A DNA stretch of 64,000 nt, taken from the NCBI GenBank assembly GCA_951406725.2, contig OX597815.1, positions 166,346,001 to 166,410,000 on the forward strand. The letters run 5' to 3'. The position numbers and the translations under genes are program-made. Source of the DNA: Octopus vulgaris. Its lineage: Eukaryota. Below, one piece after another: positions 7,778-37,925 of the stretch. The notes below the pieces were generated by a model that ran no database searches, was not told the origin of the DNA, and was given only the letters and a program-made list of their open reading frames with translations. Numbering within the stretch: position 1 is the first letter of the stretch; each line of letters starts with the position of its first letter.

Positions 7778-8310
7778 TCTAGCGAATGTTTTAAAAAAAG
7801 ATGGGTGAATGTAGCAAGGATGGCACGTATGAATGACGAAGCCACCTTGAGCATAATCCTATGAACCCAGAAATTGAAAACAGAGGGTTACCCACTTGCA
7901 AACAAATGTGGTAACATATAACAATATTGACCAAGGTTACCGTGGTCTTTTTCGTAGGCTTTTCTTCCCACGGATAAACCTTACTTGCTTTCCCCTTTAC
8001 ACCATATATCATAACACTGTGATACACGATTCCTATTGATCATTTTTTTTCCTCTTCCCCCTTTTTTCTTCTTTTTTCATTTCTCTTTCCTTTTGTTCCT
8101 TTTCCTTTTCTTTTTTTTCCTTTTATTCCTTTTATTTTATTCAAATTTTTTTTTTGTTCTTTTCTTCCCTTTTACGATCCCTCTTGATCGAAAACCTACG
8201 CCACCCCTTTTTTATTCTTTTGTTTTTTGTTCTCTTCATCCCCCAAAAGAAAAGCTCTACCTTGTAACTTGTCCCATCTGTGTGCAGCCCTGTGTGGCCA
8301 ATAAAGAAAC
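7778..8310 (+). mobile_element. Tx1/L1-clade LINE, heavily 5'-truncated copy (last ORF2 codons + 3' UTR)
   Basis: Encodes [23 protein letters not shown], as in the longer copy; T-rich 3' UTR ending CAGCCCTGTGTGGCCAATAAAGAAAC; flanked by (TCTA)n on both sides. Confidence 0.85.
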
Positions 8311-8396
<86 letters not shown>

Positions 8397-8636: not shown

Positions 8637-8639
<3 letters not shown>

Positions 8640-9173
8640 GGCCCGGGACCTATGGACAACTTCCAGAGATCCCTGGCCTGGCGGTGCTACCGAGAAGCGC
8701 TACCCGTTCGGGATAAGCTCTATAGGCATGGCTCGAGAAACACGGGGCCGACCTGCCCGAGATGCGGGCAGAGCGACGAAACCGCTCTGCACGCAATCGT
8801 GCAGTGTCCAGCAATTTCCGACCTGTGGGCTTATGTCGAACGACTGCTGTCACGTGTGGGACGTGTCGGTTTATCAGCCGAGTCTATCGTTAATATCGTC
8901 ACGCCTCCTTCTTTCAAACGGGAAGGAAGAGCTATTTTTATCATACTTGTGGCTATGGCGAAAGAATGTATCTGGTGGACGCGCCTGAAAGGATTAGAGA
9001 CAAACACTTTCCTCTCTGGTCAATCTCTCATCAACTTCTTCAAGTATCACTTGAAGAGGAAAGTGAGAGTAGAGAGGCAAGTTTTGTCTAGTGAATGTTT
9101 TAAAAAAAGATGGGTGAATGTAGCAAGGATGGCACGTATGAATGACGAAGCCACCTTGACTATGATTCTATGA
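8637..9173 (+). pseudogene. LINE ORF2 C-terminal fragment with RT-associated zinc-binding (zf-RVT-type) domain
   Basis: [16 protein letters not shown]...[18 protein letters not shown]...LW...AKECIWWTR: CxxC-ET-xxH-xxxC and IWxxR motifs typical of L1/Tx1 ORF2. Confidence 0.85.
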
Positions 9174-9534
9174 ACCATAAAAATTAATACAGAGAGTTGC
9201 TTATTTGCAAAAAAAAAAAAAAGAAATATAACATGTGACTTCATTGACTGAGGTTACCGTGGTCTTTTCCGTAGGCTTTTCTTTCCACGGGTAAACCTCA
9301 CCTGTCCTCCCCTTTACACTTCATATTGACATTTCTGTGATAACGATCCCTATTATTCATTTTTTTCTCTCCCCCCCTTTTTTAACCCCTCCCCTTTTTT
9401 TTGTCCTTTTTCTTTCCTTTTACGATCCCTTTTGATCGAAAACCACCACTCTCCTTTTTTTTACCCCCAAAAGAAAAGCTCTACCTTGTAATTTGTTCTA
9501 TCTGTGTGCAGCCCTGTGTGGCTAATAAAGAAAC
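8637..9534 (+). mobile_element. Tx1/L1-clade LINE, 5'-truncated, ORF2 C-terminus + 3' UTR
   Basis: Open frame to stop at 9173 and the same 3' end as 7778-8310; embedded in (TCTA)n. Confidence 0.9.
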
Positions 9535-9535
9535 A

Positions 9536-11694: not shown

Positions 11695-12196
11695 CAGATA
11701 TATGTTTTGCTTAAAAGCAATGCATAGTACCGGAATTTTCGCCTTCAGTCAAGTACAATAAACAACTCCGAATCGTTGTTAGATTAACCGCGTTCTGAGT
11801 TCAAATTCCGCTGAGATTGACTTTAACTTTCATCCTTTTGAAGTCGTTGAAATAAGTACCATTTGAGCACTGGGTTTGATGTAACCGATTTAACCGCTGC
11901 TCTGAAATTGCTGGCTTTGTGCCAAAATTTGAAGCTAATATTATTGGCTCGAGGCTCGAAGAAGAAGAACAAATGATCAAGTATAAGTTATAGAGTGAAA
12001 GTATCGTCCTGTGTCGGATACAAAATGAAAAGACGAAGGAAGAGTGAAAAGTAAGAGAGGAAAAAACACGAGAAAATGTCAGAGAAATAGGAGTGAGCCA
12101 GGGAAAAAATGTACGCGGATGACTTACATGCTCGTTCTCTGATTAACCCGGAAGTGTAATTGAGAGGTAATTGTTGTTTTAATAGCAAGAGATCAC

Positions 12197-12810
12197 AAGG
12201 CGGCGAGCTGGCAGAAACGTTAGCACGCCGGGCGAAATGCGTAGCCGTATTTCGTCTGCCGGTACGTTCTGAGTTCAAATTCCGCGCAGATCGACTTTGC
12301 CTTTCATCTTTTCGAGGTCGGTAAATTAAGTACCAGCTACACACTGGGGTCGATGTAATCGACTTAATCCGTTCGTCTGTCCTTGTTTGTCCTCTCTATG
12401 TGTAGCCCCTTGTGGGCAGTAAAGAAATAGGTATTTCGTCTACAGCTACGTTGTGAGTTCAAATTCCGCCGAGGTCGACTTTACCTTTCATCCTTTCGAG
12501 GTCGATTAAATAAGTACCAGTTACGTACTTGGGTCGATATAATCGACTTAATCCGTTTGTCTGTCCTTGTTTGTTCCCTCTGTGTGTAGCCCCTTGTGGG
12601 CAGTAAAGAAATAAGAAACGTTAGCACGGCGGGCGAAATGCTTAGCAGTATTTCGTCTGTCTTTATGTTCTGGGTTCAAATTCCGCCGAGGTCGACTTTG
12701 CCTTTCATCCTTTCAGGGTCAATAAATTAAGTTGTAGTTACGTATTGGGGTGATCTAATCGACTGGCCCCCTCCCCCAAAATTTCGGGCCTTCTGCCTAG
12801 AGAAGAAAAT
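12197..12810 (+). mobile_element. SINE family A trimeric array (two Tx1-like tails, terminal alternative tail)
   Basis: Three body repeats; array flanked by 16-bp TSD AATAG(C/T)AAGAGATCAC (12181-12196, 12811-12826). Confidence 0.9.
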
Positions 12811-13276
12811 AATAGTAAGAGATCACTCGTTTGTATGCGTGTATATGTAAATATGTGCGTGTGATTGCGCGCGTACGCGTAATTGTACGCGTGTGTATAG
12901 CGTATATGCATATATGTGTGTGTGTATTTGTGTATGTACGTGTATTTGTTGTAGGTACCGGATACTTGGCTGGTGAGATTAACAGTGTGTGTGCGCGCGC
13001 GCGTGCTTGTATCTACTGTATGTGTATGTATACGTGAGTTTGTGTGTATGTTGATGTAGGATATATATGTGTGCGTATGTGTAAGAACATGTACGTGGCC
13101 GTAGTCGAGGCGTGTTCAACCGGTACACCAGTCTGAGGTCCGAAATGCCAAAGTAGACTGATGACTGTTTGAGGAGGCCATTCCTTACGAATAAAAAAAT
13201 GTGACAAAACCCTTGAAATTTTATAGACACTCCGCTTATTTCGATTGGTACTTAAAACTCTGTCTTCTACCAAATC

Positions 13277-29269: not shown

Positions 29270-30250
29270 GCTTTAATCGTTAGCAGGTGGAGTAAATGCA
29301 TAGTAGAATTTGGTCCGTCTACAAATTCGAGTTCAAATTCCGCGGAGGTCAAGTTTGCTTTTCATTCTTTTAGGGTTGGTTGATAAAACAAGTACCAGTT
29401 GAACACTGGGGTTGATGTAATCGACTTACCACTGCCCCAGAAATTATTGGTCTCGTGCCAAAATTTGGAACCAATATTATGTCTTTATGTTAAAAGCGGC
29501 GAGCTGGCAGAAGCGTTAGCACGCCGGGCGAAATGTTTAGCAATATTTCGTCTGTCTTACGTTCTGAGTTCAAATTCCGCCGAGGTCGACTTCGCCTTTC
29601 ATCCTTTCGGGGTCGATTAAATAAGTACTAGTTACGCACTGGGGTCGATATAATCGACTTAATCCGTTTGTCTGTCCTTGTTTGTCCCCTCTATGTTTAG
29701 CCCCTTGTGGGTAATAAAGAAATAGGTATTTCGTCTGCGGTTACGTTCTGAGTTCAAATTCCACCGAGGTCGACTTTACCTTCCATCCTTTCGGGGTCGA
29801 TTAAATAAGTACCAGTTACGCACTGGAGTCGATGTAATCAATTTAATCCGTTTGTCTGTCCTTGTTTGTTATCTCTGTATTTAGCCCCTTGTAGGTAGTA
29901 AAGAAATAGGTATTTCGTCTGTGTTTACGTTCTGAGTTCAAATTCCGCCGAGGTCGACTTTGCTTTTCATCCTTTCGGAGTCGATAAATTAAGTACCATT
30001 TGCGTACTGGGGTCGATCTATCCGACTGACCCCCTCCCCAAAAATTGTGCCTAGAGTAGAAAAGAATCGTTAGCACGCTGAGCAAAATGCTTTACGGCAT
30101 TTTACGTCCGTCTTTATATTCTGAGTTCCAATTCCTGTGACGTCGACTTTACCTTTCATCCTTTCGGTGTTGAGCACTAGAGTTGATATTATCGACTTAT
30201 CGGTTTTCCCGGCAATTGTTGGCCTTTTGTCAAAATTGGAAACCACTACA
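29270..30250 (+). mobile_element. Cluster of SINE family A copies including a trimeric array (29495-30062) followed by a head-truncated copy
   Basis: Repeated TTCTGAGTTCAAATTCCGCCGAGGTCGACTTTGCCTTTCATCC units. Confidence 0.9.
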
Positions 30251-31499: not shown

Positions 31500-32460
31500 C
31501 GCGCCTCCTTTAAGAACACGATAGGATGTGGTCTGAGCGACACTTAATTGCTATTTCTAGCAAAGTGATCAACAAATAAAATACTCTCTCGTTTTCTTGT
31601 TCTAGATTATTAATTATTAATTAGCTGCGATATTTGCAGCAGTTATTTAGCCCCAGGTCAGTCCAGATTGAGCTGATAAATGATGAGAGGCACTCCAACC
31701 GTGACCACGCCATATTTTTCTTAAATGTGCAAGGAAACCCAAGGTTGTATTATCCAGTATGATATTTCCTAAATGATTAGGGTGTGATTTTAAAAACATT
31801 TGGCTGCGGCTTCTAGCTGACTGATGGACCTTGTTTTCATATGCTCAAGGAAACCCAAGGACGAGATTATATAACGTGTCCGCATCTCCCTTTTAAGACC
31901 CGGTAGGGAGTGATTTGAGGGACATTTGGCTGCTGTTTCTAACAAGGCGATCAACCACATAAAATACACTTCCGTTTGCCTATATTAGATTATTAATTAC
32001 TTGTGAAATTTACTGCAGATATTTAGCCACAGGTCAGTCCTGATTGAATGGATAAATGACGAGAAGCAGTCCAACCGTGACCATCCTACCTTCTTAAATG
32101 TCCAGTATGATATATTCTTATTTTCTCAGGCGGCGAGCTGGGAGAAACGTTAGCGCGCCGGGCGAAATGCTTAGCGGTATTTCGTCTGTCGCTACGGTCT
32201 GAGTTCAAATTCCGCCGATGTCGACTTTGCCTCTCATCCTTTCGGGGTCGATAAATTAAGTACCAGTTACGCACTGGGGTCGATATAATCGACTTAATCC
32301 CTTTGTCTGTCCTTGTTTGTCCTCTCTATGTTTAGCCCCTTGTGGGTAGTAAAGAAATATATATTCTTATTTTCTAAGTAATTAGGGTGTAATTTTAGAA
32401 ACATTTGGCTGCGATTTCTAGCAGACTGAAGGACCACGTTCAGGCTCCCTCGGTGACTCG
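31500..32460 (+). repeat. Cluster of an older dispersed repeat (family E); related copies at ~28935, 30413, 30830, 36350, 45250, 48235, 55735, 61500
   Basis: Recurring TTTAGCCCCAGGTCAG...CCGTGACCATCC and GATTTGGCTGCTATTTCTAGCAG motifs. Confidence 0.6.
32127..32358 (+). mobile_element. SINE family A monomer with Tx1-like tail
   Basis: 17-bp TSD ATATATTCTTATTTTCT (32110-32126, 32359-32375). Confidence 0.9.
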
Positions 32461-35767: not shown

Positions 35768-35951
35768 CCTTTCTACTAAAGGCACAAGGCCTGAAATTTT
35801 GGAGGAGGGGACTAGACGATTAAATCGACTCGTGTTTTCATTGGTACTTAATTTGTCGACCCCGAAAGGATGAAATGCAAAATCGACCTTGGCGGAAATT
35901 GAACTCTGACGGGCGAAATACTGCTAAGCATTTCGTCCAGCCGTAACTGAT

Positions 35952-37517: not shown

Positions 37518-37925
37518 ACGACGTACTGGCAGAAACGTTAGCACGCTGGGCGAAATGCTTAGTGGTATTTCGACTGTCTTATGTTCGGAGTTCAAATTCC
37601 GCCGAGGACGACTTTGCCTTTCACGGTCGATTAAATAAGTACCAGTTACGCAATGGATTCAATATAATCGACTTAATCCATTTGTCTGTCCTTGTTTGTC
37701 CCCTCCGTGTTTAGCCCCTTGTGGGTAGTAAAGAAATAGGTATTTCAACTGCCTTATGTTCTGAGTTCAAATTCCGCCGAGGTCGACTTTGCCTTTCATC
37801 CTTACGGGGTCGATAAATTAAGGGCAATCTGCCAAATTAAGTATCAGTTGCGTACTGGTGTCGATCTAGTCAATTGCACCCCCTCCCACCAAAAAAATTT
37901 CTGGCCTTGTGCCTAGAGTAGAAGA
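37518..37925 (+). mobile_element. SINE family A dimeric array
   Basis: Unit with Tx1-like tail joined at AAAGAAATA|GGTATTTC to a unit with the alternative tail. Confidence 0.85.

Follow-up and report, generated by a model that had tools for sequence, protein, structure and literature searches.

The window, i.e., the whole stretch of 64,000 nucleotides of Octopus vulgaris DNA analyzed in this work (contig OX597815.1, positions 166,346,001 to 166,410,000), harbors two 5'-truncated LINE copies and a number of SINE units, several of which end in the same 3' sequence, referred to here as tail-1. The features that are relevant to the following analysis, all of them located on the + strand, are listed below.

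7778-8311 (+): older copy of a (TATC)n-targeting LINE lineage, 5'-truncated
8637-9535 (+): young copy of the (TATC)n-targeting family, 5'-truncated, with the ORF2 C-terminus including zf-RVT (8637-9173), the 3' UTR and the shared tail
12197-12613 (+): two more tail-1 units, with the SINE head site AGAAACGTTAGC (12614) right after the second tail; LINE subfamily B-AGAA also hits this site
29493-29724 (+): first array unit, with SINE head, body and tail-1 and a B-box-like motif at 29566-29578
29666-29724 (+): tail-1 of the first unit, an apparently LINE-derived 3' tail; core homology at 29677-29724, extended 5' part matched by LINE family L130
29700-29712 (+): predicted terminal stem-loop, 4-bp stem GCCC/GGGT and 5-nt loop
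29713-29720 (+): motif AATAAAGA, common to the LINE ends, with no poly(A) after it
29725-29737 (+): SINE-internal landing site GGTATTTCGTCTG, elsewhere in the genome the site of LINE family S
29725-29908 (+): second array unit, body and tail-1, 90% identical to the first unit
29909-30062 (+): third array unit, body with a different tail (tail-2)
32128-32359 (+): full-length tail-1 SINE, standing alone between the two copies of a 16-nt target-site duplication (32111-32126 / 32360-32375)
37526-37738 (+): tail-1 SINE, followed by a SINE body at a GGTATTTC site

The tail-1 element has the properties of a SINE: it is short (232 nt in its full form), non-coding, present in a high number of copies and flanked by target-site duplications, which measure about 12-19 nt in stand-alone copies. 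A B-box-like motif is present in every unit and an A-box-like motif can be recognized by eye; neither ARAGORN nor Rfam called a tRNA in the SINE head. An exact 28-nt tail pattern, whose one-letter filter removed some of the tails, matched the genome 79,865 times. The same tail-1 is also borne by a second, related SINE body variant with a different 3' body (e.g., C2:113794343 and C5:35227885), and is thus common to more than one SINE lineage. At window positions 12180-12820, a single duplication of about 17 nt, recognized by eye, flanks an entire array of three units, so that the tail-1 units are nested within the tail-2 SINE, which represents the outer element. Tail-2 and tail-3 occur in the window at 681, 37892, 41451, 59909, and 61085 (+) and at 35802 and 36031 (-); they show the same CTTGT loop in another stem (GGC/GCC) and frequently terminate in (ATT)n. 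No LINE partner matched tails 2 and 3 among 30 RVT_1 loci; a similar loop was observed in an (ATT)n-targeting family of the Tx1-like clade (L148).

According to the original prediction, tail-1 is homologous to the 3' end of the LINE harbored by the same window, whose ends lie at 8261-8310 and about 9485-9534. The SINE tail string on which this idea was based was placed at 29677-29724, at most 2 nt away from the predicted 29675-29723. Local alignments, each with one 3-nt gap, revealed that 39 of 50 columns are identical between the SINE tail and the 8.3-kb LINE end (score 45) and 38 of 50 between the SINE tail and the 9.5-kb one (score 40). Dinucleotide shuffling of either partner, repeated 3000 times, never equalled these scores (maximum 34), and the same result (0/3000) was obtained with the 8.3-kb end after the removal of the last 12 nt. 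Moreover, when 4126 windows of 62 nt belonging to the 64-kb stretch were scanned, scores higher than 23 were obtained only from SINE tails and the two LINE ends. As also noted at the outset, poly(A) is absent from all three ends, the LINE ends running into (TATC)n and the SINE tail into another SINE body. One might argue that the similarity is due to chance or to the convergence of pyrimidine-rich, AATAAA-containing ends, as the tail is short and of low complexity and the match with the 9.5-kb end becomes weak once the last 12 nt are removed (23/3000 shuffles, and 441/3000 versus its whole 3' UTR). The shuffling results, the 43-44 identical columns out of 48 found in related families (see below), the same terminal position and the shared landing sites make this explanation extremely improbable and, given the closer families, it can be regarded as refuted. 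On the basis of the alignments, the SINE tail is homologous to the 3' end of a LINE clade belonging to the L1/Tx1 group.

The assignment to this group relies on the (TATC)n family, whose best 30 DNA matches are 98-100% identical and in all cases (30/30) are followed by TATCT repeats. The longer copies of this family span about 6.2 kb and contain two ORFs, the first with a CCHC knuckle and the second with the domains Exo_endo_phos, RVT_1, and zf-RVT, all three of which score above the Pfam cut-offs in the ORF2 of L071. The closest named homologue comes from Argonauta hians. The CCHC motif is shared by the ORF1 of family S and of L230; a separate ORF1 with a CCHC zinc knuckle is a feature of Tx1-clade elements. 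The RT region scored 198 bits versus a coral protein automatically named 'Transposon TX1 uncharacterized 149 kDa protein', 190-218 bits versus unnamed turtle and fish proteins, 112 bits versus the human L1 ORF2p, and 63-79 bits versus R2. Domains and scores place the window LINE in the L1/Tx1 group with certainty; the narrower claim that it belongs to Tx1 proper is favored, as an assignment drawn from similarity scores, anatomy and targeting rather than from a tree with reference elements. Target preference is found in different members of the clade, which land in (TATC)n (30/30), in the SINE site (69/72, see below), at the 5' end of U1 snRNA (one copy), and in (ATT)n (five loci).

A zf-RVT search scored 150 of 25,802 candidates, and about 90 of the 150 were examined. 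The LINE families have a common end plan, in which a TGT/TGTCC-rich stretch, TCTATGT, a short stem-loop, and AATAAAGA follow each other without any poly(A). Some of these ends resemble tail-1 more closely than the window LINE does: families B and C score 63-73 (58-73 in the overall comparison of B) and L130 scores 64, versus 40-45 for the (TATC)n family. In the B and C ends, the columns identical to tail-1 are as many as 44 out of 48. L130 matches the 5' half of the SINE tail almost exactly; B and C match the 3' half. Family S exhibits a moderate match (score 48), and the best tail matches (C and most of B) do not share the main landing site of the SINE. Hence, the comparison of tail-1 with LINE ends, proposed in order to find the closest Tx1 family, returned closer ends of the L1/Tx1 group (B, C, and L130), none of which is identical to it. 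Exact-tail genome patterns, which could miss a family, retrieved no LINE with a tail identical to that of the SINE; their matches (63, 54, 376, 22, and 158) corresponded to SINE variants and 5'-truncated SINEs only, 100 being listed for each of the 376-match and 158-match patterns and the filter of the former passing a given family at about 20% chance. A tail lying beside LINE coding sequence (L189) was discarded, since it lies on the opposite strand from that LINE and comes with a 12-nt duplication of its own. The possibility that a LINE outside the L1/Tx1 group might match the tail better found no confirmation among 30 RVT_1 loci (five groups, 24-28% identical to the ORF2), a small sample in which some loci may stop short of the 3' end: their best score was 28, near the background of 23.

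A quick tree was constructed using the 330 C-terminal residues of ORF2 from 13 outside homologues and from 26 sequences chosen to represent 131 segments; its support is given by SH-aLRT values rather than by bootstrap, and three of its row labels picked up a wrong tail. In this tree, B and S are sisters (SH-aLRT 92) and are joined by C and D in a wider clade (99) that leaves out the (TATC)n family; this position would make the partner of the SINE only a distant relative of the window LINE. The ORF2 of family S is about 58% identical to that of the (TATC)n family, and the identity is about 55-60% for the best candidates in general. Family B also includes an internally deleted element (L230:1516-3076, - strand) in which ORF1 with the zinc knuckle is followed by the initial ~20 and the final ~60 codons of ORF2; this protein-poor passenger sits in a SINE head, and L337 looks like a similar derivative of family S.

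The analysis of the ends also revealed a terminal stem-loop. A perfect stem of at least 4 bp, ending no more than 3 nt from AATAAA, is present in 24 of 28 ends, versus 1-4 of 28 at nine upstream offsets. The 28 ends (27 from LINEs and one from the SINE) derive from an initial set of 36, from which eight were dropped, mostly near-repeats, one of the eight (L228) being an end that does not fold. Since the stems are out of register in the MAFFT alignment of the ends, a permutation test was used in place of pair counting: swapping the 3' halves among families gave a mean of 10 stems and a maximum of 18, and 24 was reached in 0 out of 5000 permutations. The stem is therefore kept with a changed sequence, in agreement with the compensatory changes for which a test had been suggested; indeed, it reads GCCC/GGGC, GTCC/GGAC, AACC/GGTT, GATC/GATC, or AATC/GATT in different families. 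The LINE families are related and, for this reason, the 24 stems do not represent independent events. The signal is confined to the terminal stem: whole-tail folding energies are unremarkable (z from -1.35 to +0.72) and, when single ends are compared with their own shuffles, only 11 of 36 pass by energy and 4 of 36 by stem length. The stem-loop of the (TATC)n family has a longer loop. In all of the five ends that were folded, the upstream TCTATGT is predicted to pair with AATAAAGA, lengthening the hairpin, and both sides are nearly invariant.

As regards the landing sites, the first 100 of the 79,865 tails were inspected by eye: 49 of them are followed by a SINE body at GTATTTCG (four more being unclear), 12 by TATA, and none by (TATC)n. 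In the whole genome, TATCTA follows 131 of about 80,000 SINE tails (0.16%). The rarity of SINE tails at (TATC)n implies that the window LINE family does not explain where the SINE lands. In a set of 149 ends, picked by earlier patterns and including a few LINE ends that slipped in, the bases after the SINE tail mostly read N-R-T-A-T.

These data bear directly on the idea that the (TATC)n-targeting family of the window might itself be the main partner of the SINE. The family is young (98.6% pairwise identity), its tail homology is significant, it lands like the SINE at TA-rich sites, 131 SINE tails do precede TATCTA, and a SINE variant with 3,374 matches ends, as this family does, in AAAGAAACA. 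Nevertheless, the LINE copies lie in (TATC)n in 30 cases out of 30, versus the 131 SINE tails mentioned above and none of the first 100; that AAACA variant of the SINE precedes TATA, GATA, or GGTA, and a (TATC)n array is absent from the 100 matches listed out of 3,374; and the family shows the lower tail score, the longer loop, and a position outside the B/S/C/D clade. We consider it very improbable that this family is the main partner, an idea that can be regarded as largely refuted.

A different picture emerges from family S. A pattern designed for a LINE-type end at the SINE GTATTTCG site retrieved family S in 47 of 48 matches and, when the target was omitted from the pattern, 69 of 72 S ends were still found (by eye) at this site, two of the remaining three being followed by ATAT or GTAT in the same register. 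The register of family S at GTATTTCG is that of about half of the SINE's own tails: S ends in AAAGAAATT and the SINE in AAAGAAATA, and N-GTATTTCG follows in both. The idea that the first G of GGTA derives from the SINE RNA was dropped, this base being also present in the 5' copy of most duplications. Eight of ten fetched S loci contain a full-length insert of 5.3-5.4 kb that interrupts a SINE head and shows a duplication of about 15 nt; one copy (L367) has an open ORF2 of 1134 residues. The full-length S copies (L366-L373) all lie in SINEs with the CGTAGCCGTATTTC head variant; full-length SINE self-insertions are found mostly in the CTTAGCGGTATTTC variant. This contrast might reflect either a finer target preference or a piece of the head carried by the LINE.

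A second landing class can be connected to family B. Of the 10 nearest copies of the subfamily B-AGAA whose end can be seen, 8 continue into AGAA (8/29 overall), and two copies sit in a SINE head, at the same site that follows the window tail at 12614. The GGGCAAT variant of the SINE tail is over-represented at AGA sites, both in the set of 149 ends (14/27 vs 0/89) and among the first 100 genome matches (4/13 vs 1/87). A strict link between tail variant and target was rejected, as GGGCAAT tails at GTATTTCG are 0/27 in the selected set but 3/13 in the unbiased list. No LINE partner was found for the TATA landing class (12 of the first 100 tails). The sharing of landing sites, through which a partner LINE would supply the target specificity of the SINE, is seen for S at GTATTTCG and for B-AGAA at AGAA and does not extend to the (TATC)n family.

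On the whole, we consider it quite probable that the last 50-60 bases of the SINE, homologous to the poly(A)-less 3' end of a target-specific LINE clade of the L1/Tx1 group, allow it to be reverse-transcribed in trans by the ORF2 proteins of this clade, chiefly those of the sister lineages S and B and not those of the (TATC)n family of the window. The mobilization of the SINE by LINEs of this clade is likely, as is the existence of more than one partner family. What is new with respect to the original prediction is that the (TATC)n family is largely excluded as the main partner and that several partners are likely; the proposal that a relative of the window LINE moves the SINE holds insofar as such relatives share its tail and landing sites, and fails for the window family, which is a poorer match placed outside the best clade. 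The tail might have been acquired from an older or extinct LINE family and might now be served by several relatives of it. ORF2 would bind the SINE RNA at the stem-loop and at AATAAAGA, in a stringent-type recognition like that of L2-clade LINEs, as far as this is described in the consulted part of PMC4176376, and the bound RNA would be inserted by target-primed reverse transcription where the endonuclease of the partner cuts. This endonuclease would set the landing site of the SINE, the S lineage leading it to GTAT/ATAT-type sites, including the SINE itself, and the B lineage to AGAA sites.

It might also be imagined that a single extinct or unsampled family, with a nearly identical tail and a loose N-R-T-A-T preference, made nearly all the copies, S and B being bystanders. 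The SINE tail does look blended, its 5' half being close to L130 and its 3' half to B and C, and the zf-RVT search scored a mere 150 of the 25,802 candidates. Against this, AGAA sites fit one living lineage and GTATTTCG sites another, the sites of enrichment differ among tail variants, and no such family emerged from five patterns of limited power. We regard this scenario as unlikely; as far as the origin of the tail is concerned, it is compatible with the service by several partners that we favor.

A further issue concerns the way in which the nested arrays were assembled. Nearly all the SINE units at the self-site lack a separate 5' junction; the insertions into SINEs would be mostly seamless at the 5' end, owing to the homology between an incoming copy and the SINE that it enters. 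A full SINE head joined to the target half at GTATTTCG was found in 88 exact junctions, and 13 of 20 loci examined contain a full SINE between duplicated GTATTTCGTCTG, i.e., an S-type duplication. These 88 junctions, compared with roughly 39,000 tails at GTATTTCG, imply that most of the self-site units could be copied multimers or DNA-level duplications. Hence, the tail might have been taken once from a Tx1-like LINE, the arrays having grown mainly by tandem duplication of DNA or by multimer copying, with S merely exploiting an abundant SINE and the shared site being largely a matter of history. Such a scenario would account for the seamless units and for the paucity of exact non-seamless junctions, for the fact that S is younger than most SINE units and for the slightly higher similarity of adjacent units, which average 92.6% identity versus 90.8% for random pairs, with 5 of 50 adjacent pairs reaching at least 98%. 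However, 45 of the 50 adjacent pairs are less than 98% alike (the two units of the window share 90%), true insertions with an S-type duplication were recognized at the 13 loci mentioned above, and stand-alone SINEs with duplications also occur at GGTA, GGTT, and TATA sites outside SINEs. The identities of adjacent units suggest that tandem duplication contributes to the arrays but does not dominate, and we judge it quite unlikely that duplication is the main explanation. In addition to the arrays of whole units, minisatellites made up of the first ~65-69 nt of the SINE head, up to the landing site, were observed in tandem, with eight and four units, at the following loci of G000.

C10:17996024-17996506: SINE-head tandem array
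C13:69036075-69036320: SINE-head tandem array

The ages of the elements place a constraint on the partnership between the SINE and the S and B lineages. In small and selected samples, the mean pairwise identity is 97.7% for S, 95.4% for B-AGAA, and 98.6% for the (TATC)n family; SINE classes, again in small and selected samples, differ by 4-8% from their majority sequence, and the units at the S site by about 5.7%. The ages of LINEs and SINEs overlap for the youngest SINEs only and, since the S copies are young with respect to the SINE units at the S site, an ancestor of S must be invoked.

The system described here can be compared with a few others. The movement of the crocodilian SINEU by the Tx1 clade was inferred from a shared target repeat, and no LINE sharing its 3' end was found, as reported in the consulted part of Kojima 2015 (PMC4494074). 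That system and the present one have in common the landing in the same repeat, tandem insertions sandwiching a duplication, and different LINE families for different SINE families; on the other hand, SINEU elements possess snRNA heads and poly(A) tails and target a Mariner transposon (SINEU/Tx1-Mar), whereas the octopus SINE has a LINE-shared tail without poly(A) and its main target is the SINE itself (comparison limited to the consulted part of PMC4494074). SINE/LINE tail pairs involving the L1 clade are three among 58 pairs in the portions consulted of Ohshima 2012 (PMC3472496) and Ohshima 2013 (PMC3747384), namely, maize/sorghum ZmSINE2 and ZmSINE3 with LINE1-1_ZM and Chlamydomonas SINEX-3_CR with L1-1_CR. 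As in the octopus, those pairs exhibit a conserved end of ~45 nt, a hairpin and compensatory changes; their hosts are plants and an alga, with no target specificity described in those portions, whereas the LINEs analyzed here are target-specific, Tx1-like and belong to an animal. A likely model for the recognition is represented by UnaL2/UnaSINE, ZfL2-1, and ZfL2-2, where the LINE protein recognizes a 3' stem-loop shared with the SINE (PMC4176376, in the part consulted); these are L2-clade elements and their recognition was revealed by assay, whereas the octopus system belongs to the L1/Tx1 group and its recognition is predicted from the sequence. Mollusc SINEs with exchangeable LINE-derived tails (35-61 bp, 72-95% identity) are represented by the bivalve HCD tRNA-SINEs, whose partners are CR1-Zenon, Nimb, CR1, and L2, with no L1/Tx1 partner reported in the part consulted of PMC11481361.

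Target-specific Tx1 families include Tx1L in Tx1D, Keno (U2), and the microsatellite-targeting Kibi and Koshi (consulted part of PMC4494074). The octopus clade resembles them in aiming at (TATC)n, (ATT)n, a U1 snRNA gene, and a SINE; unlike the targets described in the part of that work consulted, the SINE bears the clade's own tail. In the consulted part of the octopus repeat annotation (PMC13282606), L1-Tx1 families and unclassified SINEs are reported without pairing. Our literature search found no description of this SINE/LINE pair; entries in Repbase, Dfam, and SINEBase, as well as subscription papers, may already hold it.

The sharing of tails with SINEs is rare among L1-clade LINEs, and the sole Tx1-moved SINE group found in the consulted literature was inferred from targets alone; here, both the tail and the target are shared, in a LINE group related to human L1 whose natural copies include young, intact ORFs. 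This makes it possible to test whether proteins of the L1 group can select RNA by a folded tail rather than by poly(A) and how the target choice of an endonuclease passes to a passenger SINE, and it offers an account of the building of nested arrays by a very abundant octopus repeat. More broadly, we can speculate, with about even chances of being right or wrong, that one conserved hairpin tail lets a whole radiation of Tx1-like LINEs, target-specific and devoid of poly(A), serve a SINE with about 10^5 copies, that SINE subfamilies inherit their landing sites from different partners, and that one partner lineage evolved to land in the SINE, so that the passenger builds the target sites of its carrier and piles into them.

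Other members of the clade also appear to have targets of their own. Downstream of at least five other LINE families lies a recurring sequence, specific to each family and unmatched by Rfam in the loci scanned, pointing to a large set of uncharacterized LINE target specificities. Their loci are the following.

L133, L139, L199, L205: LINE family with a recurring downstream sequence
L141, L142, L191, L192, L197: LINE family with a recurring downstream sequence
L131, L190, L193, L200, L202: LINE family with a recurring downstream sequence
L134, L144, L145, L147: LINE family with a recurring downstream sequence
L130, L216, L220: LINE family with a recurring downstream sequence

Finally, at L207:896-1059 (and at L332) a LINE of the clade stops exactly where it meets the 5' end of a complete U1 snRNA gene (RF00003 in Rfam, 125 bits), and represents a candidate U1-targeting family seen at one locus.
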